The notes beneath the pieces were generated by a model. It ran no database searches and was not told where the DNA came from. It saw only the letters and a program-made list of their open reading frames with translations. A stretch of 64,000 nt of DNA from an uncultured delta proteobacterium (GTDB lineage Bacteria; Myxococcota_A; Polyangia; Fen-1088). A program made the translations under genes and the position numbers. Of this stretch, positions 1-31,943 are shown one piece after another. The stretch is from positions 480,001 to 544,000 of the forward strand of contig CAWCMR010000025.1 of NCBI GenBank assembly GCA_963796685.1, read 5' to 3'. The stretch's first letter is position 1. Each line of letters starts with the position of its first letter.

Positions 1-483
1 GAATTCGTCCTGTCCGGTCTGCGCAAGGCCACCAAGGGCGAGGTCGAGGTCGAGGTCACCTTCGAGATCTCGGCCGACGGCATCGTCAGCGTGTCGGCAC
101 AGGACATGGAGACCGGCGCCGAGCAATCCATCACGGTCACTGCCACCAGCAGCCTGACCGAAAGCGAAATCGCGCGCATGGCGACCGAGAACCAGGACCA
201 CATGGTGGCCGCGCGCGCCGAAGAGGAAGTCGAGAAAGAGCGCCAACGCATCGAGAAGCTGGTCGACGAGGCCGAGGCGCTTCTGCCCAAGGTCGAGGAG
301 ATCCTGGCCGGCACGCCGTTTGGCGAGGACAGCCTGGACAACGTGCGCTTGATTCTGGACGATGCGCGCATGGCGGTCGAGCGCCGAGACGCCGGCGGCC
401 TGGAGCAGGTGGCCGAGCCGCTCCTGCGCACCCTCAACATGTTCCGCGGCGTGGTCGACAGCGGCCGACTGCGCTCGAGCTAG
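1..483 (+). CDS. dnaK: Hsp70/DnaK-family chaperone, C-terminal part (5' truncated by window edge)
   Basis: Frame 1 is open from base 1: EFVLSGLRKATKGEVEVEVTFEISADGIVSVSAQDMETGAEQSITV matches the DnaK substrate-binding domain, followed by a helical lid. Could be a paralog rather than the main dnaK. Confidence 0.85.
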   Translation, partial: EFVLSGLRKATKGEVEVEVTFEISADGIVSVSAQDMETGAEQSITVTATSSLTESEIARMATENQDHMVAARAEEEVEKERQRIEKLVDEAEALLPKVEEILAGTPFGEDSLDNVRLILDDARMAVERRDAGGLEQVAEPLLRTLNMFRGVVDSGRLRSS

Positions 484-1402: not shown

Positions 1403-3477
1403 GTCGAGTAGCCAGGGGAGGTTACCCTCCCCCAGCTCTCACAGAACCGGACTTGTGGGCCTCACATCCGGCTCTTCGGGACGCTGGCGTTCGGGAGCGA
1501 CCCGTAGTCCAGCGCCGGCATTGCTGCCCGCAGCTATCCTGGCTCCAGGGCCGGGTCCATGAAGTCCAAGGCGTGATGGTCCTTCCACCGCTCGGCCAGG
1601 CTGACAAGCCCGCGTTCGGCAAAATATGCGTTGCGCAGTCCTCGTTCAACTACCGATGTGTGGCTCAGCGCCCACCAGGAGCGATGCCCCTTGTAGACCC
1701 CTTGCCACGCGGTTTTCGGTCTCACCCCCAGGCTGATGAGGTGTCGTGCGATGAAGCGTCTGCGTTTCCAGTGCCGTAGCACTATCGCTCGCAGCCGCCG
1801 CCTGATGTGTGCGTCGAGTGCCTGCAGCGTCCGCTCTTCCGCGGCCGTGCAGATACAGAAGAAGCCGATCCATCCGAGCAAATACGCGTTGACCTGTTTG
1901 ATGCAGCCCTTGAGGGACTGCCCAAGGTTTCGCGGCGTCAGCTCTCGGACCTTCTCGTCAATGCGGCTTTTGCTCCGCGCCGACAGCAGCACCTCCGCTT
2001 CCCCCGTCAGCGGCTCGCGCCGCAGCCGGAATCCCAGAAAGTGCCGCTCTTCCGGTCGGGCCACCGCGCTCTTGGCCAAGTTCACCTTCAACCGCATCCG
2101 GCCTTCGATGAACTTGACCACGCTGGCCATCACACGCTGACCCGAGCGCTCGCTTCCGACGTAGATGTTGCAGTCGTCCGCATAGCGCACGAAGCGGTGA
2201 CCGCGTTGGGCAAGCTCGCGGTCGAGCTCGTCCAGCACGATATTGCTCAGTAACGGCGAAAGCGGACCACCTTGTGGCACTCCTTCTTCCGTCGCCACCA
2301 CCACTCCGTCGGGCATCACCACCTTGGCTTTCAGCATCTGCCAGATGAGCTCGATGAGCCGCCGGTCCTTAACCCTCTGTTCTAGCCGCGCCACCAGCCG
2401 TTGCCAGTGGACCCAGTCAAAGAACTTTTCCAGGTCGAGGTCGACCACCCATTCGTACCCTTCCTCCAGATACTGCTTGGCCTCGGCGATGGCCGTGTGA
2501 CAGCTGCGCCCAGGTCGGAAACCGTGGCTCGACGGGTGAAACGTCGGCTCATAATGCGGACCGAGCACTTGGTGCACGGCCTGCTGAACCACGCGGTCCA
2601 CCACGTTCGGTATGCCAAGGCCCCGCCGCCCGCCACCGCTCTTCGGTATCCATACCCGCCGGATGTCTCCGACTCGGTATGTCCCGTCGAGCAGCGACCG
2701 CGACAGCGCCGGTATCAGCGTCCCCAACCCCTTCGCCACTTCCCCCACGCTTTGCCGGTCCGGTCCAGGTGCGCCTTTGTTGGCCTTCACTTGCTCGAAC
2801 GCTCTTTTCAGGTTTCCTTCGCTCGCTACCTCCTCCATCGTCATGGGCGGCAAGGTCCTCTCTTCCTCGTTCCCCGACTTCGGCACCTCGCTCCGCGCAG
2901 GCACGGGTTGGCCCGGATCCGCTTGGGCGGTGGACCCTTTCGGGTTGTCGGCTGTCTCGGGAAACAGTCCGAGCTGCCTTGCCTCTTTGCTGGCCGTGGT
3001 CGCCTTCCCTCCCCGCCTTCTGGCGGTTGGAACCGGCTTTCGCCGGCCTTCCGGTATTACGCGACCATCCGACTCCTCTTGTCCCTTCTTCATCTCGTCC
3101 TTTCGTTCTCGATGAATTCCGCTTGCGATTCCTCGCCGCGGAGGCCAAGAGGTCTCTCCGGGTAAGAACGCAGAACTTCGCACCGACTCCGTCGCCACTA
3201 CGCGGGCCGCCCGACGAATATTGGGCTTTGCCGCCGAAGGCCAGCTTGCCCAGCGGTACCCACGCCTTACGGCGCTTCACTTTCGTTCGGTTCGGCGCTG
3301 CACCATAGACTTCCACCAGACACCTCCTCGCGGGAGACGGGCCTTGCGGCCCGTCTGGCCTGGTGCTCCAGACCGGCGCCCTTGTCTCGTAGGTGGGAGG
3401 TTCCCTCCGTCAGGGTCCCCAGAGGACTTGGCTATTTCATGGCTTCACCTCTTGTTCTGCGTCCATGCCGGACGCAC
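1403..3477 (-). mobile_element. Group II intron, copy 1 (class C-like, 2075 nt)
   Basis: Minus strand begins GTGCGTCCGGCATGG at 3477. Domain V GAGCCGGATGTGAGGCCCACAAGTCCGGTTC (1474-1444), then a domain VI hairpin with bulged A, ending CTACTCGAC at 1403. Boundaries coincide, within 1 nt, with where identity to copy 2 stops. Confidence 0.95.
1534..3093 (-). CDS. ltrA: Group II intron reverse transcriptase/maturase, no endonuclease domain
   Basis: Motifs NKGAPGPD, RGLGIP, SHGFRPGRS, DLDLEKFFD, GVPQGGPLSPLLSNI, RYADD, and a class-C type end WWALS...AYFAERGLVSL. Start taken at ATG 3093 (AAAGGA 4 nt upstream); MTMEEV at 2844 is an alternative. Confidence 0.95.
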   Translation of the reverse strand: MKKGQEESDGRVIPEGRRKPVPTARRRGGKATTASKEARQLGLFPETADNPKGSTAQADPGQPVPARSEVPKSGNEEERTLPPMTMEEVASEGNLKRAFEQVKANKGAPGPDRQSVGEVAKGLGTLIPALSRSLLDGTYRVGDIRRVWIPKSGGGRRGLGIPNVVDRVVQQAVHQVLGPHYEPTFHPSSHGFRPGRSCHTAIAEAKQYLEEGYEWVVDLDLEKFFDWVHWQRLVARLEQRVKDRRLIELIWQMLKAKVVMPDGVVVATEEGVPQGGPLSPLLSNIVLDELDRELAQRGHRFVRYADDCNIYVGSERSGQRVMASVVKFIEGRMRLKVNLAKSAVARPEERHFLGFRLRREPLTGEAEVLLSARSKSRIDEKVRELTPRNLGQSLKGCIKQVNAYLLGWIGFFCICTAAEERTLQALDAHIRRRLRAIVLRHWKRRRFIARHLISLGVRPKTAWQGVYKGHRSWWALSHTSVVERGLRNAYFAERGLVSLAERWKDHHALDFMDPALEPG

Positions 3478-3845: not shown

Positions 3846-5921
3846 GTCGAGTAGCCAGGGGAGGTTACCCTCCCCCAGCTCTCACAGAACCGGACTTGTG
3901 GGCCTCACATCCGGCTCTTCGGGACGCTGGCGTTCGGGAGCGACCCGTAGTCCAGCGCCGGCATTGCTGCCCGCAGCTATCCTGGCTCCAGGGCCGGGTC
4001 CATGAAGTCCAAGGCGTGATGGTCCTTCCACCGCTCGGCCAGGCTGACAAGCCCGCGTTCGGCAAAATATGCGTTGCGCAGTCCTCGTTCAACTACCGAT
4101 GTGTGGCTCAGCGCCCACCAGGAGCGATGCCCCTTGTAGACCCCTTGCCACGCGGTTTTCGGTCTCACCCCCAGGCTGATGAGGTGTCGTGCGATGAAGC
4201 GTCTGCGTTTCCAGTGCCGTAGCACTATCGCTCGCAGCCGCCGCCTGATGTGTGCGTCGAGTGCCTGCAGCGTCCGCTCTTCCGCGGCCGTGCAGATACA
4301 GAAGAAGCCGATCCATCCGAGCAAATACGCGTTGACCTGTTTGATGCAGCCCTTGAGGGACTGCCCAAGGTTTCGCGGCGTCAGCTCTCGGACCTTCTCG
4401 TCAATGCGGCTTTTGCTCCGCGCCGACAGCAGCACCTCCGCTTCCCCCGTCAGCGGCTCGCGCCGCAGCCGGAATCCCAGAAAGTGCCGCTCTTCCGGTC
4501 GGGCCACCGCGCTCTTGGCCAAGTTCACCTTCAACCGCATCCGGCCTTCGATGAACTTGACCACGCTGGCCATCACACGCTGACCCGAGCGCTCGCTTCC
4601 GACGTAGATGTTGCAGTCGTCCGCATAGCGCACGAAGCGGTGACCGCGTTGGGCAAGCTCGCGGTCGAGCTCGTCCAGCACGATATTGCTCAGTAACGGC
4701 GAAAGCGGACCACCTTGTGGCACTCCTTCTTCCGTCGCCACCACCACTCCGTCGGGCATCACCACCTTGGCTTTCAGCATCTGCCAGATGAGCTCGATGA
4801 GCCGCCGGTCCTTAACCCTCTGTTCTAGCCGCGCCACCAGCCGTTGCCAGTGGACCCGGTCAAAGAACTTTTCCAGGTCGAGGTCGACCACCCATTCGTA
4901 CCCTTCCTCCAGATACTGCTTGGCCTCGGCGATGGCCGTGTGACAGGCTGCGCCCAGGTCGGAAACCGTGGCTCGACGGGTGAAACGTCGGCTCATAATG
5001 CGGACCGAGCACTTGGTGCACGGCCTGCTGAACCACGCGGTCCACCACGTTCGGTATGCCAAGGCCCCGCCGCCCGCCACCGCTCTTCGGTATCCATACC
5101 CGCCGGATGTCTCCGACTCGGTATGTCCCGTCGAGCAGCGACCGCGACAGCGCCGGTATCAGCGTCCCCAACCCCTTCGCCACTTCCCCCACGCTTTGCC
5201 GGTCCGGTCCAGGTGCGCCTTTGTTGGCCTTCACTTGCTCGAACGCTCTTTTCAGGTTTCCTTCGCTCGCTACCTCCTCCATCGTCATGGGCGGCAAGGT
5301 CCTCTCTTCCTCGTTCCCCGACTTCGGCACCTCGCTCCGCGCAGGCACGGGTTGGCCCGGATCCGCTTGGGCGGTGGTCCCTTTCGGGTTGTCGGCTGTC
5401 TCGGGAAACCGTCCGAGCTGCCTTGCCTCTTTGCTGGCCGTGGTCGCCTTCCCTCCCCGCCTTCTGGCGGTTGGAACCGGCTTTCGCCGGCCTTCCGGTA
5501 TTACGCGACCATCCGACTCCTCTTGTCCCTTCTTCATCTCGTCCTTTCGTTCTCGATGAATTCCGCTTGCGATTCCTCGCCGCGGAGGCCAAGAGGTCTC
5601 TCCGGGTAAGAACGCAGAACTTCGCACCGACTCCGTCGCCACTACGCGGGCCGCCCGACGAATATTGGGCTTTGCCGCCGAAGGCCAGCTTGCCCAGCGG
5701 TACCCACGCCTTACGGCGCTTCACTTTCGTTCGGTTCGGCGCTGCACCATAGACTTCCACCAGACACCTCCTCGCGGGAGACGGGCCTTGCGGCCCGTCT
5801 GGCCTGGTGCTCCAGACCGGCGCCCTTGTCTCGTAGGTGGGAGGTTCCCTCCGTCAGGGTCCCCAGAGGACTTGGCTATTTCATGGCTTCACCTCTTGTT
5901 CTGCGTCCATGCCGGACGCAC
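3846..5921 (-). mobile_element. Group II intron, copy 2 (2076 nt, near-identical to copy 1)
   Basis: Same GTGCG...CTACTCGAC ends. Offset from copy 1 is 2443 before and 2444 after an extra G near 4946. Confidence 0.95.
3977..5537 (-). pseudogene. ltrA: Intron RT/maturase of copy 2, split by a +1 frameshift near 4946 (possibly a sequencing error)
   Basis: TGACAGGCTG here vs TGACAGCTG in copy 1. The two halves appear as ORFs 4860..5642 and 3977..5080. Confidence 0.85.
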
Positions 5922-27274: not shown

Positions 27275-27652
27275 CTAGGCCAGCGCGCAGTCGCCCAGCA
27301 CCGTGCGCACGGCCTGGCCAAGCTCTTGAACCAGCGCGCTCTTGGTGACGAAACCGTGCGCGCCCGCCCGCCGTGCGAGCGTGGCATACGGCGATTCGGG
27401 CAGCGAGCTGATGATGATCACCGGCAATCCGGGCCTCGAGGTGCGCAACTCCTTGAGGACATCGATGCCGCCGCAGCCGGGAAGGCGCAAATCGAGCAGC
27501 ACCAAGTCGAAGGTGCGCTCGGCCACCAGGGCCAGTCCCTCCTCACCGGACGAGGCCGCGGTCATTTCCGCATGGGGAACGGCGGCTGCCAAAAGCTCGC
27601 CGATGCGCTGGCTGACTGCCGGATGATCGTCGACGAGAAGGATTCTCTTCAT
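27275..27652 (-). CDS. Single-domain response regulator
   Basis: ILLVDDH, LLDLRLPG, FVTK. Confidence 0.9.
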   Translation of the reverse strand: MKRILLVDDHPAVSQRIGELLAAAVPHAEMTAASSGEEGLALVAERTFDLVLLDLRLPGCGGIDVLKELRTSRPGLPVIIISSLPESPYATLARRAGAHGFVTKSALVQELGQAVRTVLGDCALA

Positions 27653-27781
27653 GGGTTGAGGTGCTGCTCCCATGATGACTACTTCGCCAGATTCGGCGCG
27701 TCACGTATGCCGGAAGGACTCCGAATTCGCTGTCAGGCTCGGTCCTACACGCCTGCGTCACAGGTCCGATACGCCGGGACC

Positions 27782-28438
27782 TCAATCGACCAATCCCTCA
27801 CGCAGGGCGTACTGGATCAGCTCTGCGTTGGTGCGCATCTGCATCTTTTCCAGTAGGCGCGTGCGGTAGGTGCTGACAGTCTTCTCCGACAGGGCCAAAT
27901 CGATGCCGATCTCCTTAACGGTCTTGCCCGCGGCCAGGGCGCGCAGAACCTCGAGCTCGCGGTCGGAAAGCCGCTCGTGTGCAGGCCGCGTGGTGTCGTT
28001 GCGCAGGCTCTTGGCCAGGGTCTCCGCCAGGCGAACACTGACATGGGTGCCCCCGGCCAGGACCTTGCGGACCGCGCCCGACAAGTCCTCGGCAGCGCTG
28101 TCTTTGTTGACGTAACCGGCGGCACCTGCACGCAGGGCTCGCAGGGCATAGTGATCCTCGGCGTGCATGCTGAGCACGAGCACCGGCACGGACGGCCGCA
28201 ACCGCTTGATCTCGCGAAGCGCATCCAGCCCACCGCGACCGGGAAGCGAGATGTCCAGCACCACCACATCCCAGTCCTCGCCCTGCAGCTGCTCGATGGC
28301 CTCGGATGGCTTGGCCGCCTCGCCGAAGCTCACCTTGCCCAGGGACTCGGTGAGAATGTCGCGCACGCCGCGCCGGACCACCGCATGATCGTCGACGAGG
28401 AGAATGCGAGTCACCGTGCGAGCCCTCCTGGTTCCCAT
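27782..28438 (-). CDS. NarL/LuxR-family response regulator
   Basis: REC domain plus LSDRELEVL...LSEKTVSTYR HTH. Alternative GTG start near 28414. Confidence 0.95.
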   Translation of the reverse strand: MGTRRARTVTRILLVDDHAVVRRGVRDILTESLGKVSFGEAAKPSEAIEQLQGEDWDVVVLDISLPGRGGLDALREIKRLRPSVPVLVLSMHAEDHYALRALRAGAAGYVNKDSAAEDLSGAVRKVLAGGTHVSVRLAETLAKSLRNDTTRPAHERLSDRELEVLRALAAGKTVKEIGIDLALSEKTVSTYRTRLLEKMQMRTNAELIQYALREGLVD

Positions 28439-28643
28439 GCGCCACCAAGATGGACGCGACGCTCATTCGCACTACGAGCAGACGTATGCCGCCGGCTCTC
28501 ATTCGGGGCAGCATTCCAACGGGTCGCCTCACTGTGCCGCGTTCCCCTCATCTCAAGAGTAAATATAGACCATCTCCAAGGTTTGCGGGCAGCAAACCCG
28601 AACGCGGAATTCGCGCAGTCCCAAAAGGAATTGACTGAATTTC

Positions 28644-29816
28644 CTAGTCGTGCCCCAGGTCGCCGTCTTGGCGCCCGGTCAGGTCGATCACGGGCCCGCC
28701 GGTGTCCTCGTCCTGCATCCCGTGCATGAGGCGCGCCCTGACTCGCATCACCTGGCGCTCCTTGTAGCGTTCGTGGCTGTTCTCGCCGAGCTCGTTGGCC
28801 TCCGAGGTACGCGCGTCGACGATCTGAAACTCCGTCAGCACGAAGACCACGTTGCCGGTTTCGGCGAAGATCGGATCGTCGGGCGCAAGCCCGAGCTGCT
28901 TGTCCACACGCACCGGCAAATCCGCGACGAAATTGACCACCCGATAGCTTGGTCCGGAAAACTCGTTGGCTTGCAGCGATCGCTTGTCCGGGGTCTCGTT
29001 CGAAAGCTCGAGAAAGTCGGCGAGGTGGCCGCGCAGGGTGGGGTTGCGCTCGACGAACGACTGCAAGTCGACGATGTCGTTCTGCGACTCGGCGGGGATG
29101 ACGTAGTTGAAGGGGACCAAGCGCTGCAAGAGCTCGCGCAGCACGAAGACGATCTCCTCCTCGGTACGCGTGATCATGCGAAAGCGCAGCTTGTCGTAGA
29201 CGTGGGCCGCGATGTTGTCGCGCTTGGCGAGCAGCTTGGTGATGAGGCTGTCCTGCTCCTTGCGGCTCCACTCGAACTCGACGATCTGGCAACCCGCGCC
29301 CTTCATCTCCTCGACGGTGCGCAGGACCTTGTCCTCGACGACCTGGAAGATCTGGTCCGCGCTGACGGCCAGCCGTGTCGCCAGCTCTCCTGCCGCGAGG
29401 TGGTGAAGCACGTGCATCACCTTGAGCACCACGCAGGCTTGGGTGCGACGCTTGCCCTTCTGGGACGCCACGAGCAGAAGGTCTCGCGCCGGCACCCGCA
29501 CGGCCACATCCTCGGATACCCGGAAGCCCAGGTAACGTTCGAGATACTCGATGGCCTGTTCGCGCAGATCCTCCAGGCGCGCGATATCGTCGGGGTTGCC
29601 GGGATCGATCTCGTTGATGCGTAGGAAGCGGTCGACCTGCTGGCGATCGGTGAAATACAGGCGGTGCCAATCGATGACCGAGCCGCCGCGCAAAAGGTTT
29701 CTGACCGCGGTGAGATCCACGCTGGCGAAGCCGGACACGCGTTCGAGGTCGGACGCGTCCCCCGCGGCGTCGGGGCGCCCGGATTGCGAAGAAGGTTCAG
29801 AGGTTACCAGCGTCAT
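28644..29816 (-). CDS. TIGR04552-family protein with RelA/SpoT synthetase-like motifs
   Basis: LLRGGSVIDWHRL family signature; RKEQDSLITK, YDKLRFR, SYRVVN, EFQIVD, ELGENSHERYK. Confidence 0.82.
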   Translation of the reverse strand: MTLVTSEPSSQSGRPDAAGDASDLERVSGFASVDLTAVRNLLRGGSVIDWHRLYFTDRQQVDRFLRINEIDPGNPDDIARLEDLREQAIEYLERYLGFRVSEDVAVRVPARDLLLVASQKGKRRTQACVVLKVMHVLHHLAAGELATRLAVSADQIFQVVEDKVLRTVEEMKGAGCQIVEFEWSRKEQDSLITKLLAKRDNIAAHVYDKLRFRMITRTEEEIVFVLRELLQRLVPFNYVIPAESQNDIVDLQSFVERNPTLRGHLADFLELSNETPDKRSLQANEFSGPSYRVVNFVADLPVRVDKQLGLAPDDPIFAETGNVVFVLTEFQIVDARTSEANELGENSHERYKERQVMRVRARLMHGMQDEDTGGPVIDLTGRQDGDLGHD

Positions 29817-30081
29817 GCAGCCCTAGCCATCGGCCAAAAGTGGCTGGGAGTGTAGGCGCACCGGCACGCACCGGCAAGGTGAATCCACCCAGCAATCGAC
29901 CCCTGTGAAGGTCGGCTGGGCTTGGTCGCGCGACGCCCTAGAGCTTGCCCCGGACGGGCTTACCAATGCGTAGCGTCGCAAGGAAGATGGCCACGGCACC
30001 GAGCGATGTAACGGCGCTTCCAATGACGGGAATTGTAGACATAGATATTACTATATCCTACATGTAGTCAGACGCAAGAAT

Positions 30082-31812
30082 TCACCGTCTGCGCCTGCGG
30101 GCGCGACGCCCTTGCATGATGGCTCCAAGCAGCAACAATCCCATGAAGACCGAAAAGAATAGCGCCACCTTCTCTTCGAGGACCTGCCCGCGACCTTCGT
30201 AGACGAGCGAAACGCAGAAGCTTACGGCGCCCAGGAACCCCCACAAAAACTTGTGCCCCAAAGCATAGAACGCTTCCGCGGATTCCTCGAGGCGACGCAC
30301 GCGAACCTGAATGTCGCCGCGCGTGGCCAGGTTGAGAAACCGCCCAAGCTCGCTGGGCAAGGCGAGGGCCGAGAGCGTGGCTTCCCGGGCGGTCTCGAGA
30401 ACCGTCTCCGACCACTCCTTGCGTTCACCCAGGATGAAGCGGTCGACGTAGGGCTGGATGACGTCGGCCGGGTTGAGCTCGGGCGCCAAGGTCGTGCACA
30501 CACCGAGCAGGAGCAGCAGGGTCCGTTCGAGCAGCACCCATTCGCCCGGCACGTGAAAGGCGTCGCGTAGATCGGCCAAGGAAACGTCCAGCTGACGCAA
30601 GTCGAGCAGGGTGGCGATCTGTCCGCGCAGATCGAGTCCCGAGCTGAGGCTGCCGGTAGAGAACTGCTGGAAACGCATCTGCGAGCGGAAGGTCTCGTAG
30701 AAATGCTCGATGACCCGGTCGAAGACCTCGTGATCCGCGTGGCGCGAGATGAAGCCCATCTCCTTCATGGCCGCGACGATGCGCCCCACATCGCGCGTGA
30801 CCGCGCCTTGCAGGAAGGACACGATCCCCTTGCGCATGCCGGGCGAGACGCGCCCCGTGGCGCCAAAATCGAGAAACACGAGGACGGGATCGCTCCCGCC
30901 GCCGGGACCGGCCGCCAGCAGCAGATTCCCCGGGTGCGGATCCGCGTGGTAGATGCCGTCGACGAAGATTTGTTTGCAGTAGGCCTCGATGCACAAGCGA
31001 CCCGCCTTCATGCGGTCGATGCCCGCGCTGGCGATACCCGGCAGATCGCCGATCTTCACGCCATCCACCCATTGTGCGATCAGCACGCGCGAGGTCGAGT
31101 AGTCGCCGACCACGCGCGGAATGAGAACGTCGGTTCGACCGGTGAAATTGTTGGCGATGGCGGCCATGGCCTCGGCTTCTTGCCGATAATCGAGCTCGGC
31201 CAGAACCATCTTCTTGATTTCGCCGTAGATCACGTTCCAGCCCCAGTCGGGAAGCAGGCGCGCGGCCAGACGCGAGATGCGCTTGAGCGCCCGCAGATCG
31301 GTGGCCACGATGGTCTCGATGTCGGGATACTGGACCTTGACCGCGACCTTTTCCCCCGAGCGCAAGCGCGCCACGTGCACCTGCCCGATGGAGGCCGAGG
31401 CAATGGGGTTCTCGTCGAACTCGGCAAAGACCTCGCGCGGAGACCTGCCGCCGAGCTCTTCGCGCAGGCGAATCTCGATCTCGGCGAAGGGACGTGGCGG
31501 CACGCTGTCTTGCAGGGTTTCGAGCTCCTTGCGGAAGGCCTCGGGAAGCAGGTTGGCCATCACGCTGATGAGCTGCCCCACCTTGATGAAGAGTCCCTGC
31601 AAATCGACGATGGCGGCGAGGACGCGTCGGGCGTTCTTGCGATGCGCTCGATCGGCCAGCTGCACCGCCTTCTCGCTGCTGCGCAAGCGGCGGCGCAGCG
31701 AATAGAGGGCGTACGACAACACCACCTGCATGGTCACGAAGTAGGCGCGCAGCAGGCGCCGGGTGGGCCTACGAAGTGCCGCGGTCCGCGCCGTGCGAGG
31801 GGTGGCTGTCAT
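30082..31812 (-). CDS. ABC1/AarF/UbiB-family atypical kinase
   Basis: IKVGQ, ASASIGQVH, VAVKVQYP, HADPHPGN, LDFG; two C-terminal TMs. Confidence 0.95.
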   Translation of the reverse strand: MTATPRTARTAALRRPTRRLLRAYFVTMQVVLSYALYSLRRRLRSSEKAVQLADRAHRKNARRVLAAIVDLQGLFIKVGQLISVMANLLPEAFRKELETLQDSVPPRPFAEIEIRLREELGGRSPREVFAEFDENPIASASIGQVHVARLRSGEKVAVKVQYPDIETIVATDLRALKRISRLAARLLPDWGWNVIYGEIKKMVLAELDYRQEAEAMAAIANNFTGRTDVLIPRVVGDYSTSRVLIAQWVDGVKIGDLPGIASAGIDRMKAGRLCIEAYCKQIFVDGIYHADPHPGNLLLAAGPGGGSDPVLVFLDFGATGRVSPGMRKGIVSFLQGAVTRDVGRIVAAMKEMGFISRHADHEVFDRVIEHFYETFRSQMRFQQFSTGSLSSGLDLRGQIATLLDLRQLDVSLADLRDAFHVPGEWVLLERTLLLLLGVCTTLAPELNPADVIQPYVDRFILGERKEWSETVLETAREATLSALALPSELGRFLNLATRGDIQVRVRRLEESAEAFYALGHKFLWGFLGAVSFCVSLVYEGRGQVLEEKVALFFSVFMGLLLLGAIMQGRRARRRRR

Positions 31813-31943
31813 GGGGGAGGCAGCATATCCCGGTGGCCGAGCGCATGCACGCGCCGCCGGCAGTAGGTTGCCCGCGTGCAGTGGCGGCCATCGAGGCGGC
31901 AACGGTCGGGACTTTCGCCGAGGGCTGTACTAGGCTTGCGTCC

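Follow-up and report, generated by a model that had tools for sequence, protein, structure and literature searches.

The active site of RelA/SpoT homologue (RSH) synthetases has been described for several members. In SaRelP, the adenine is stacked by R78 and R112, H190 touches the ribose, and K80, K88, R91 and S84 bind the phosphates. The Mg2+ is held by D107 and E174, and the Tyr of the G-loop (Y151) is described as critical for guanosine binding (Steinchen et al. 2018, PMC5794853). This metal ion forms a bridge between the beta,gamma-phosphates and the 3'-OH of the acceptor, and the equivalent residues of RelSeq are R241/R269, D264/E323 and Y308, as laid out by Civera et al. 2021 (PMC7983052). 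Likewise, the base is stacked between R249 and R277 in RelTt, where the R249A/R277A variants are reported to be strongly impaired (Tamman et al., preprint 10.1101/670703). Here, these enzymes are compared to the product of a TIGR04552 family gene from an uncultured delta proteobacterium (Myxococcota_A; Polyangia; Fen-1088). The gene lies in a stretch of 64,000 nucleotides (the window: assembly GCA_963796685.1, contig CAWCMR010000025.1, positions 480,001 to 544,000 of the forward strand), and all coordinates below are window positions unless another contig or locus is named. Its protein, P0001, whose residue numbers are used throughout, belongs to a family that is almost certainly a very divergent relative of the RSH synthetases. 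The initial annotation had pointed to the ordered motif set of an RSH synthetase domain (SYNTH) in this gene; the motif strings quoted there are all present, and their coordinates were verified.

RelP and RelQ consist of a single catalytic domain and have no hydrolase. The TIGR04552 family shares this feature with them, together with the strand-helix order and the five motifs. Unlike RelP and RelQ, it carries an additional N-terminal domain of ~150 aa and lacks the first adenine-stacking Arg. The spacings also differ: from Lys to Asp, Asp to Tyr, Tyr to Glu and Glu to His they are 22, 83, 38 and 19 residues in P0001 and 27, 44, 23 and 16 in SaRelP numbering. This comparison indicates insertions of about 40 residues between motif 2 and the G-loop and about 15 between the G-loop and motif 4. 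With the long RSHs (Rel, RelA, SpoT) the family has in common a profile match that covers almost the entire SYNTH domain as well as the helix before it, the motif 5 form 'xExGxxxHxxYK', the presence of a domain ahead of SYNTH and the Glu-to-His spacing, since the 19 residues between E329 and H348 equal the long-RSH value (RelA E335-H354). Unlike the long RSHs, it has no TGS or ACT domain and gives no HD match in Pfam at E<=1, and its N-terminal domain shows no similarity to the HD hydrolase domain in the profile and fold searches described below.

The toxic small alarmone synthetases (toxSAS) and CapRel, which are tRNA pyrophosphokinases, and Tas1 have the same superfamily fold (VIA-align Z 7.5 for CapRel 7ztb and 6.4 for Tas1 6ox6) and are precedents for RSH domains with acceptors other than GDP/GTP. 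The family differs from them in that it is near single-copy and vertical, has no conserved antitoxin or immunity gene and gives no PADLOC or PHROGs match. By fold, it is nearer to the housekeeping RSHs than to toxins of this kind. Single-SYNTH-domain RSHs, classified by hidden Markov models, also include MixRel and the other 29 small alarmone synthetase (SAS) subfamilies (Jimmy et al. 2020, PMC7229694). Unlike the TIGR04552 family, MixRel draws its members in that study from a mixture of taxa, among them Klebsiella, Janthinobacterium and Tenacibaculum, and has canonical E-I/V-Q-V/I-R-T motifs. The myxobacterial entries in the supplementary alignments of that study are one Rel and one pavSpo hydrolase, and those alignments contain no myxobacterial SAS.

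Homology to the RSH synthetases and predicted fold

P0001 is assigned to TIGR04552 by the NCBIfam model (338.7 bits vs. a cut-off of 125), with residues 32-364 covering positions 2-351 of the 352-position profile. The sister model TIGR04562 scores 322.6 bits. In a first search for relatives, 3031 matches at E<=1e-3 were obtained among 8000 candidates scored, and among the 120 matches listed the identity to P0001 was always at least 71 %. A second search, against 1.84 billion cluster representatives at 50 % identity, yielded 786 at E<=1e-3. The distant members are all named 'TIGR04552 family protein' or 'hypothetical' in their source records. An alignment of 73 full-length representatives (A1), 26-62 % identical to P0001, underlies the counts out of 73 given below.

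A search of all PDB chain sequences with the A1 profile yields five matches (E<=10), each of them an RSH synthetase: RelP from B. subtilis (6fgk, E 0.0037), Rel from S. aureus (7oiw, E 0.0093) and three E. coli RelA entries (E 0.6-0.8). The alignments are collinear over motif blocks 1-2, 3 and 4-5. The HHpred-like comparison that the initial annotation had proposed points the same way. With hhalign, A1 is aligned to the SYNTH domains of 28 long RSHs at 95.4 % probability and E 1.8e-8, over 150 columns (family positions 144-356, SYNTH positions 5-154). These domains were drawn from 30 same-class loci found by Pfam RelA_SpoT, of which two (L119 and L120) were omitted because the E-x-Q-x-R-T pattern was not matched.

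When the members are scanned singly, Pfam RelA_SpoT (PF04607) is found at E<=0.1 in 47/73, with a best E-value of 4.2e-6, and no other Pfam family occurs in more than one of them. The ortholog P0289 from genome G030, which is 43 % identical to P0001 over 338 aa (E 2e-90), reaches 31.7 bits and thereby clears the gathering score of 27 bits set for RelA_SpoT; its residues 170-336 are aligned to positions 4-112 of the 113-position profile. Two TIGR04552 genes (that of P0289 and one in genome G037) also score above the RelA_SpoT cut-off when Pfam is run in six frames, and a protein atlas contains one TIGR04552 cluster with PF04607 on 11 % of its members. For P0001, the Pfam scan at E<=1 gives a single noise match besides RelA_SpoT; in agreement with the initial annotation, HD, TGS and ACT domains are absent at this threshold.

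The AlphaFold2 model of P0001, built from A1, has a mean predicted local distance difference test score (pLDDT) of 88.9 and a predicted template modelling score (pTM) of 0.87. A helical region (21-173) leads into a strand-helix-strand unit (178-216). Residues 219-293 form helices and a loop of low confidence, after which come long strands at 294-303 and 323-334 and finally the C-terminal helices. The C-terminus (residue 390) lies ~30 residues beyond the SYNTH domain. Foldseek returns 27 PDB matches at E<=1e-3, headed exclusively by RelQ and RelP entries (E ~1e-4, probability 1.00), with Rel and RelA after them. VIA-align, which is independent of Foldseek, was used to compare the model to 48,161 representative chains. 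Its ranks 1-9 are occupied by RSHs only (Z 11.7-7.5): RelP 6fgk (Z 11.7, root-mean-square deviation (rmsd) 3.3, 148 aligned residues, 19 % identity, model residues 151-358), Rel 8acu from B. subtilis (Z 11.6), Rel 6yxa (10.8), RelQ 5dec (10.4), RelP 6ewz (10.2), SpoT 7qps (9.8), RelA 5l3p (9.6), SpoT 7qpr (8.1) and CapRel 7ztb (7.5). Nucleotidyltransferases of the pol-beta fold other than RSH reach a Z of 7.5 at most. The RSH fold foreseen in the initial annotation is found by both searches.

Motifs and active-site residues

All five RSH synthetase motifs are present in P0001 in the order of the RSHs, and this ordered set is conserved across the 73 members (A1 consensus: GxRKxxxSxITKLLxK ... 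IxDRxRFRI ... PFNYVVPGxSxN ... NEFSGxxYRxxNFV ... VEFQxxD ... NExGENSHxxYKxRQ). Their positions are given in Table 1. The equivalences to SaRelP and E. coli RelA were taken from HMMER alignments, and the RelA numbering was checked at G251, D275, E335 and H354. In motif 1, K186 (K80/K254 in SaRelP/RelA) is found in 71/73, S190 (S84/S258) in 67/73 and K194 (K88/K262) in 69/73, with Arg in four more. The first motif pairing of the initial annotation was off by one: with these three residues in register, the Arg of G-R-x-K falls on S184. In motif 2, D208 (D107/D275) is conserved in 71/73 (Glu in the other two) and R213 (R112/R280) in 67/73. Two positions before the latter lies a family-specific Arg (R211, 71/73), where the RSHs have Gly or Ala.

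The G-loop contains N284 (63/73) and an aromatic residue at position 291 (Tyr in 53 and Phe in 18, thus 71/73), which corresponds to Y151 of SaRelP. In motif 4, E329 (E174/E335) is present in 72/73 and replaced by Asp in one, Q331 (RelA Q337) is present in 69/73 and D334 in 72/73. In motif 5, H348 (H190/H354) is found in 68/73, Y351 in 70/73 and K352 in 67/73, the last two being equivalent to RelA Y357-K358. Overall, seven of the nine SaRelP ATP/Mg ligands (R78, K80, S84, K88, R91, D107, R112, E174 and H190) are conserved, each in 67-72 of the 73 members. The segment PFNYVIPAESQN is conserved as well (P235 72/73, N237 67/73, N246 71/73), and in the hhalign alignment its VPG core is paired with 'VPGRFKDY' of the RSHs.

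Several positions deviate from the canonical RSH pattern. The G-loop is five residues longer than in RSH, and the Lys of PKxNGY is not conserved. The Arg of QIRT has been substituted by a hydrophobic residue (V333 in P0001; Arg 0/73), and its Thr by D334, which is placed at a strand-to-helix turn. The His of SLH corresponds to N295, a variable position (Asn 43, Ser 10, Lys 9 and His 4 of 73). The initial annotation had taken the H-to-N and RT-to-VD changes to suggest an altered specificity. These substitutions are indeed present, but given the variability of N295 and the location of D334, the H-to-N and T-to-D changes are probably not the most telling ones. Judging by the alignment, the loss of the first adenine-stacking Arg and of the QIRT Arg (each 0/73) and the five additional G-loop residues look more consequential.

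The N-terminal all-helical domain contains an invariant Lys (K132, 73/73), and D49, W50, D77, C128, H135 and H139 are conserved. A profile of this region (residues 21-176, 37 homologous segments) gave only one unrelated weak match among the PDB sequences (8fje, E 0.096). When modelled alone, the domain has a pLDDT of 74.1 and a pTM of 0.65, compared to a pLDDT >93 within the full-length model. This drop suggests that it depends on packing against the catalytic domain. With the isolated model, the best VIA-align hit is RbcX (Z 4.8, rmsd 12.7), none of the 48,161 chains reaches Z>=5, and Foldseek gives no match at E<=1e-3. The region was also considered as a degenerate HD hydrolase, i.e. the remnant of a truncated long RSH. 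This proposal finds no support in the profile, VIA-align or Foldseek searches, the sole HD-type row for the moderate isolated model (pLDDT 74) being OxsA at rank 23 (Z 3.4), although a remote HD origin is still conceivable. In the full-length model the domain packs tightly on the catalytic domain, and its most likely role is in regulation or in the selection of substrates.

Table 1. Positions of the TIGR04552 gene, its predicted domains and motifs, and the neighboring genes.
Feature	Position in window	Residues of P0001	Strand	Basis or remark
TIGR04552 gene, whole (P0001)	28644..29816		(-)	ATG start, 390 aa, stop codon included
N-terminal all-helical domain	29367..29756	~21-150	(-)	Model secondary structure; family-specific, without recognised fold
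RSH synthetase (SYNTH)-like nucleotidyltransferase-fold domain	28743..29366	151-358	(-)	VIA-align; hhalign
Motif 1, RKEQDSLITKLLAK	29223..29264	185-198	(-)	Strand beta1 to helix; HMMER alignments to RelP, Rel and RelA
Motif 2, DKLRFR	29178..29195	208-213	(-)	D208, putative Mg2+ ligand; R213, putative second adenine-stacking Arg
Conserved segment, PFNYVIPAESQN	29079..29114		(-)	Opens the ~40-residue insertion
Motif 3 / G-loop, NEFSGPSYRVVNF	28929..28967	284-296	(-)	N284 and Y291 paired with N and Y of PKxNGYQSLH (hhalign)
Motif 4, EFQIVD	28815..28832	329-334	(-)	E329, putative second Mg2+ ligand / catalytic Glu
Motif 5, NELGENSHERYKERQ	28752..28796	341-355	(-)	H348; Y351 and K352 as YK of 'HWxYKE'
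UbiB/ABC1-like kinase gene	30082-31902		(-)	Upstream of the TIGR04552 gene, same strand, 265-nt gap
NarL-type response regulator	27782-28438			Downstream of the TIGR04552 gene, 205-nt gap
CheY-like receiver	27275-27673			After the NarL-type regulator

Proposed catalysis and alternative readings

Sequence and model suggest, at a probability of roughly 0.6, that P0001 is catalytically active, as a Mg2+-dependent RSH pyrophosphokinase whose donor-base pocket and acceptor loop are altered. In the proposed mechanism, a nucleoside triphosphate donor (probably ATP) would be bound through K186, S190, K194, R213 and H348. D208 and E329 would position the Mg2+ on the beta,gamma-phosphates, and the pyrophosphate would be moved to the 3'-OH of a base-bearing acceptor that is stacked on Y/F291. 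The role of the missing adenine-stacking Arg may be taken over by R211 or by a residue of the N-terminal domain, such as the invariant K132. The missing first Arg, the hydrophobic residue at the position of the QIRT Arg and the lengthened G-loop suggest that the donor pose and/or the acceptor identity differ from the canonical synthetases of guanosine tetra- and pentaphosphate, (p)ppGpp, with which bacteria signal starvation.

A number of observations weigh against this reading. No PDB sequence is matched at E<=10 when P0001 alone is used with phmmer; among the PDB sequences, the RSH relationship is visible to the family profile only. In Pfam, P0001 on its own stays below the RelA_SpoT cut-off of 27 bits (14.7 bits, E 0.039; residues 186-230, profile positions 4-47). 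The template modelling (TM) scores of the Foldseek matches, normalised by target, are modest (0.42-0.58), which is ascribed to the insertions in P0001. In the active site, the column of the first adenine-stacking Arg (S184) holds Ser in 36, Gly in 29, Asn in six, Thr in one and Asp in one member, and Arg in 0/73; the residue beside it (R185) is Arg in 38/73 only. In view of the impaired R249A/R277A variants of RelTt, canonical ATP binding may be compromised by this loss. The column of SaRelP R91 (A197, mostly Ala or Ser) is not conserved either, the adjacent K198 being Lys in 61/73. In some members, e.g. P0122, the catalytic columns are degenerate, which indicates that loss of activity occurs within the family. 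Finally, Myxococcus xanthus relA mutants reportedly do not accumulate (p)ppGpp on starvation, and this speaks against a major (p)ppGpp-synthesising role.

The protein could also be a second canonical (p)ppGpp synthetase, for which the retained Mg2+ ligands, K/S/K set, second Arg and His speak, as does the N...Y pair kept from the guanine-binding loop. In this case, the protein would be an SAS with an N-terminal extension that converts ATP and GDP/GTP like RelP and RelQ do. The closest folds are those of RelP, Rel and RelQ (Z 10.2-11.7), which rank above the tRNA-modifying CapRel (7.5) and the (p)ppApp synthetase Tas1 (6.4). Such an activity is conceivable but doubtful: neither the first adenine-stacking Arg nor the QIRT Arg occurs in any of the 73 members, the SLH His is left in four, the PKxNGY Lys is unconserved and the G-loop has its five extra residues. 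The lack of starvation-induced (p)ppGpp reported for the M. xanthus relA mutants also argues against it. On the other side, (p)ppGpp drives myxobacterial development, and it is RelA-made (p)ppGpp that starts the multicellular developmental programme, according to a review (PMC12288465).

An RSH-fold domain could also have become a pseudo-enzyme that only binds a nucleotide (e.g. an alarmone or ATP) and serves as sensor or scaffold, comparable to the pseudo-hydrolase domain of RelA. The loss of one Arg of the adenine sandwich and of SaRelP R91 would fit this proposal, as would the tight packing of the N-terminal domain that the two pLDDT values (>93 in context vs. 74 alone) point to. Furthermore, the knockout phenotypes are mild or absent in the publications found to mention the family. 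It is nevertheless unlikely, as the Mg2+ ligands are retained in 71/73 and 72/73 and Q331, H348, K186 and K194 in 67-71/73, at 26-62 % identity to P0001. Near-invariance of these residues at such divergence is the usual mark of constraint on catalysis rather than on binding only.

Membership of another pol-beta nucleotidyltransferase branch (MenT/AbiEii-like or aminoglycoside-type), with transfer of a nucleotidyl group instead of pyrophosphate, is highly improbable: the fold search does list Pol X (Z 7.5), MenT1 (7.4), URT1 (7.2) and, at Z 6-7, aminoglycoside nucleotidyltransferases and CD-NTases, but all of these rank under nine RSH chains, the PDB profile search finds RSH only and Pfam RelA_SpoT only, and K..S..K, D..R, E.Q and H..YK together make up the signature of the RSHs and not the hG[GS]/DxD motif.

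If the active pyrophosphokinase with modified pocket and loop is taken as the starting point, its product may tentatively be sought outside (p)ppGpp. The family could then be a phylum-wide housekeeping RSH pyrophosphokinase that forms an undescribed pyrophosphorylated nucleotide or modifies an RNA 3' end. The rebuilt donor-base pocket, the longer acceptor loop and the new N-terminal domain would together yield a regulatory signal in Myxococcota (and in Bdellovibrio, PMC9888234). Such a signal might act on development or gliding motility, for which the transposon fitness pattern of MXAN_4858 gives a hint. This gene, the M. xanthus ortholog, lies near the G1 glt cluster, and its transposon insertions are described as behaving like dampened motility mutants in development; an earlier insertion had no overt motility effect, according to the same preprint (bioRxiv 10.64898/2026.08.28.747804).

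Distribution, genomic context and meaning for the Myxococcota

The family is present in 35 of 41 close relatives and in 98 of 151 Myxococcota genomes (96/149 of high quality; 78/119 genera), nearly always as a single copy, and it is absent from the 14 control genomes. The 80 best related loci in GTDB species genomes all belong to Myxococcota metagenome-assembled genomes (Polyangia, Haliangiales, Kofleriaceae). The initial annotation's 'myxobacterial small' synthetase is accordingly borne out in its first word; the second does not hold, as the N-terminal domain of ~150 aa comes in addition. A family member exists in Bdellovibrio, where an indel in it is reported to have reached high frequency in one evolved population (PMC9888234).

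The window's own genome (G000, 88.6 % complete) contains one long RSH, which bears the only HD_4 domain found there, and it gives one strong and one weak match to the family model. The weak match (G000:C25:1533362-1534087 (+)) is a second, divergent TIGR04552-like gene with an open reading frame (ORF) of 554 aa (locus L002:631-2292). It scores 56 bits with TIGR04552 and 58 with TIGR04562, both below the cut-off and for the catalytic half only, and 17.2 bits (E 0.0066) with Pfam RelA_SpoT. By eye, it has R-x-K in motif 1 and no Arg at the second stacking position. As a bridging sequence between the family and the RSHs it was discarded, since hhalign against the SYNTH alignment gave a probability of only 0.5 %. 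Similar weak second matches occur in 9 of 13 same-genus genomes (G000 included) and in 0 of 28 others. A further ORF of the same genome (215 aa; G000:C22:173592-173891, locus L004:1549-2196 (+)) contains the canonical FEIQVRT...YK C-terminal half of RelA_SpoT. With 26 bits vs. a cut-off of 27, and weak PHROGs matches without assigned function, it is possibly a small RSH of truncated or atypical form.

Variation in length was also noted among the family members. No fused longer forms were detected at E<=1e-5 among the proteins of 684-2000 aa, which is weak evidence; of the longer members, P0140 and P0172 give sub-threshold RelA_SpoT matches only, and P0141, P0136, P0252 and P0262 give none. In genome G043 (C82:14420-15358 (-)), the TIGR04552 match is divided into two pieces in one frame (profile positions 2-237 and 269-352), and this suggests an ortholog with an unusually large insertion or local divergence. 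In the metagenomic protein P0219, the helical domain of 5-hydroxymethyldeoxyuridine (5-hmdU) DNA kinases (HMUDK_hel, PF18723, E 3e-49; residues 1-154 of a 281-position profile) continues in frame into the C-terminal half of a TIGR04552 protein. If real, this would be a fusion of two modules related to phosphoryl and pyrophosphoryl transfer. However, P0219 is a singleton on one contig of 4860 nt and both domains are truncated; it was therefore set aside, being probably a chimera produced by the assembly or else a rare recombinant. HMUDK_hel occurs in none of the 73 members.

The neighboring genes in the window (Table 1) do not appear to be general partners. The UbiB-like gene is found upstream, on the same strand, at 35 of the 56 close-relative loci for which 4.5 kb or more are available on that side. 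The gaps there range from 179 to 3924 nt, and the identities go down to ~45 %. It is found at none of the 16 phylum-wide loci scored; it was rejected as an operon partner, the arrangement being lineage-restricted synteny. The downstream regulators were rejected as well, because NarL-type and CheY-type genes are present at 9 and 12 of 80 loci, respectively (some of these being cross-hits), and in the nearest relatives only. A consensus scan of 28300-30200 yielded neither promoter nor terminator sites (0 and 0). Among 20 loci from across the phylum, no neighbor cluster is shared by more than four; the recurrent ones are Lon protease with a tetratricopeptide repeat (TPR) protein (4/20), the RsgA GTPase (3/20) and the RecD2 helicase (3/20). 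The RsgA gene (PF03193, E 1e-38) stands divergently beside the TIGR04552 gene at L128, L135 and L145. In other bacteria RsgA is a (p)ppGpp-binding GTPase, and its adjacency is thus perhaps of interest. Elsewhere in the window, two apparently identical group II intron copies lie in tandem at 1403-3337 and 3846-5781 (-), 2.44 kb apart, each with matches to RF02001 (D1-D4, 79.7 bits) and RF00029 (domain V-VI, 46.6 bits).

As the initial annotation had stated for the window, no antitoxin adjoins the gene; none is conserved in the window, at the 80 related loci or at the 20 phylum-wide loci. PADLOC and PHROGs each give 0 matches for the TIGR04552 protein. The single copy, the phylum-wide spread, the lack of a partner and the lack of PADLOC and PHROGs matches point to a vertically inherited housekeeping gene instead of a toxin-antitoxin or defence module. 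The protein would thus be a housekeeping signalling enzyme of the Myxococcota, not a toxin.

In the full-text literature no published link between TIGR04552 and RSH was found, though tables S1/S2 of PMC7229694 could still include such proteins. Among publications on small alarmone synthetases and Myxococcus, no title or abstract concerns TIGR04552. The analysis thus recognises and characterises a divergent subfamily of the RSHs and not a new kind of enzyme, because the link was already latent in automated Pfam matches on a minority of the members.

The myxobacterial RSH inventory has so far been taken to comprise a single long RSH and, occasionally, accessory enzymes. A gene of hitherto unassigned function in about two-thirds of the sampled Myxococcota genomes encodes a protein of the RSH synthetase fold whose catalytic core is intact, and thus becomes a candidate source of another signal of the alarmone type, the second one in these social bacteria. 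In addition, the family widens the RSH sequence space, as one adenine-stacking Arg has been lost, R211 has been gained, the G-loop has been remodelled and a new N-terminal domain has been added. Annotation pipelines could rename several thousand 'TIGR04552 family' proteins, and the family would be useful for understanding how donor and acceptor specificity evolves in the RSH superfamily.

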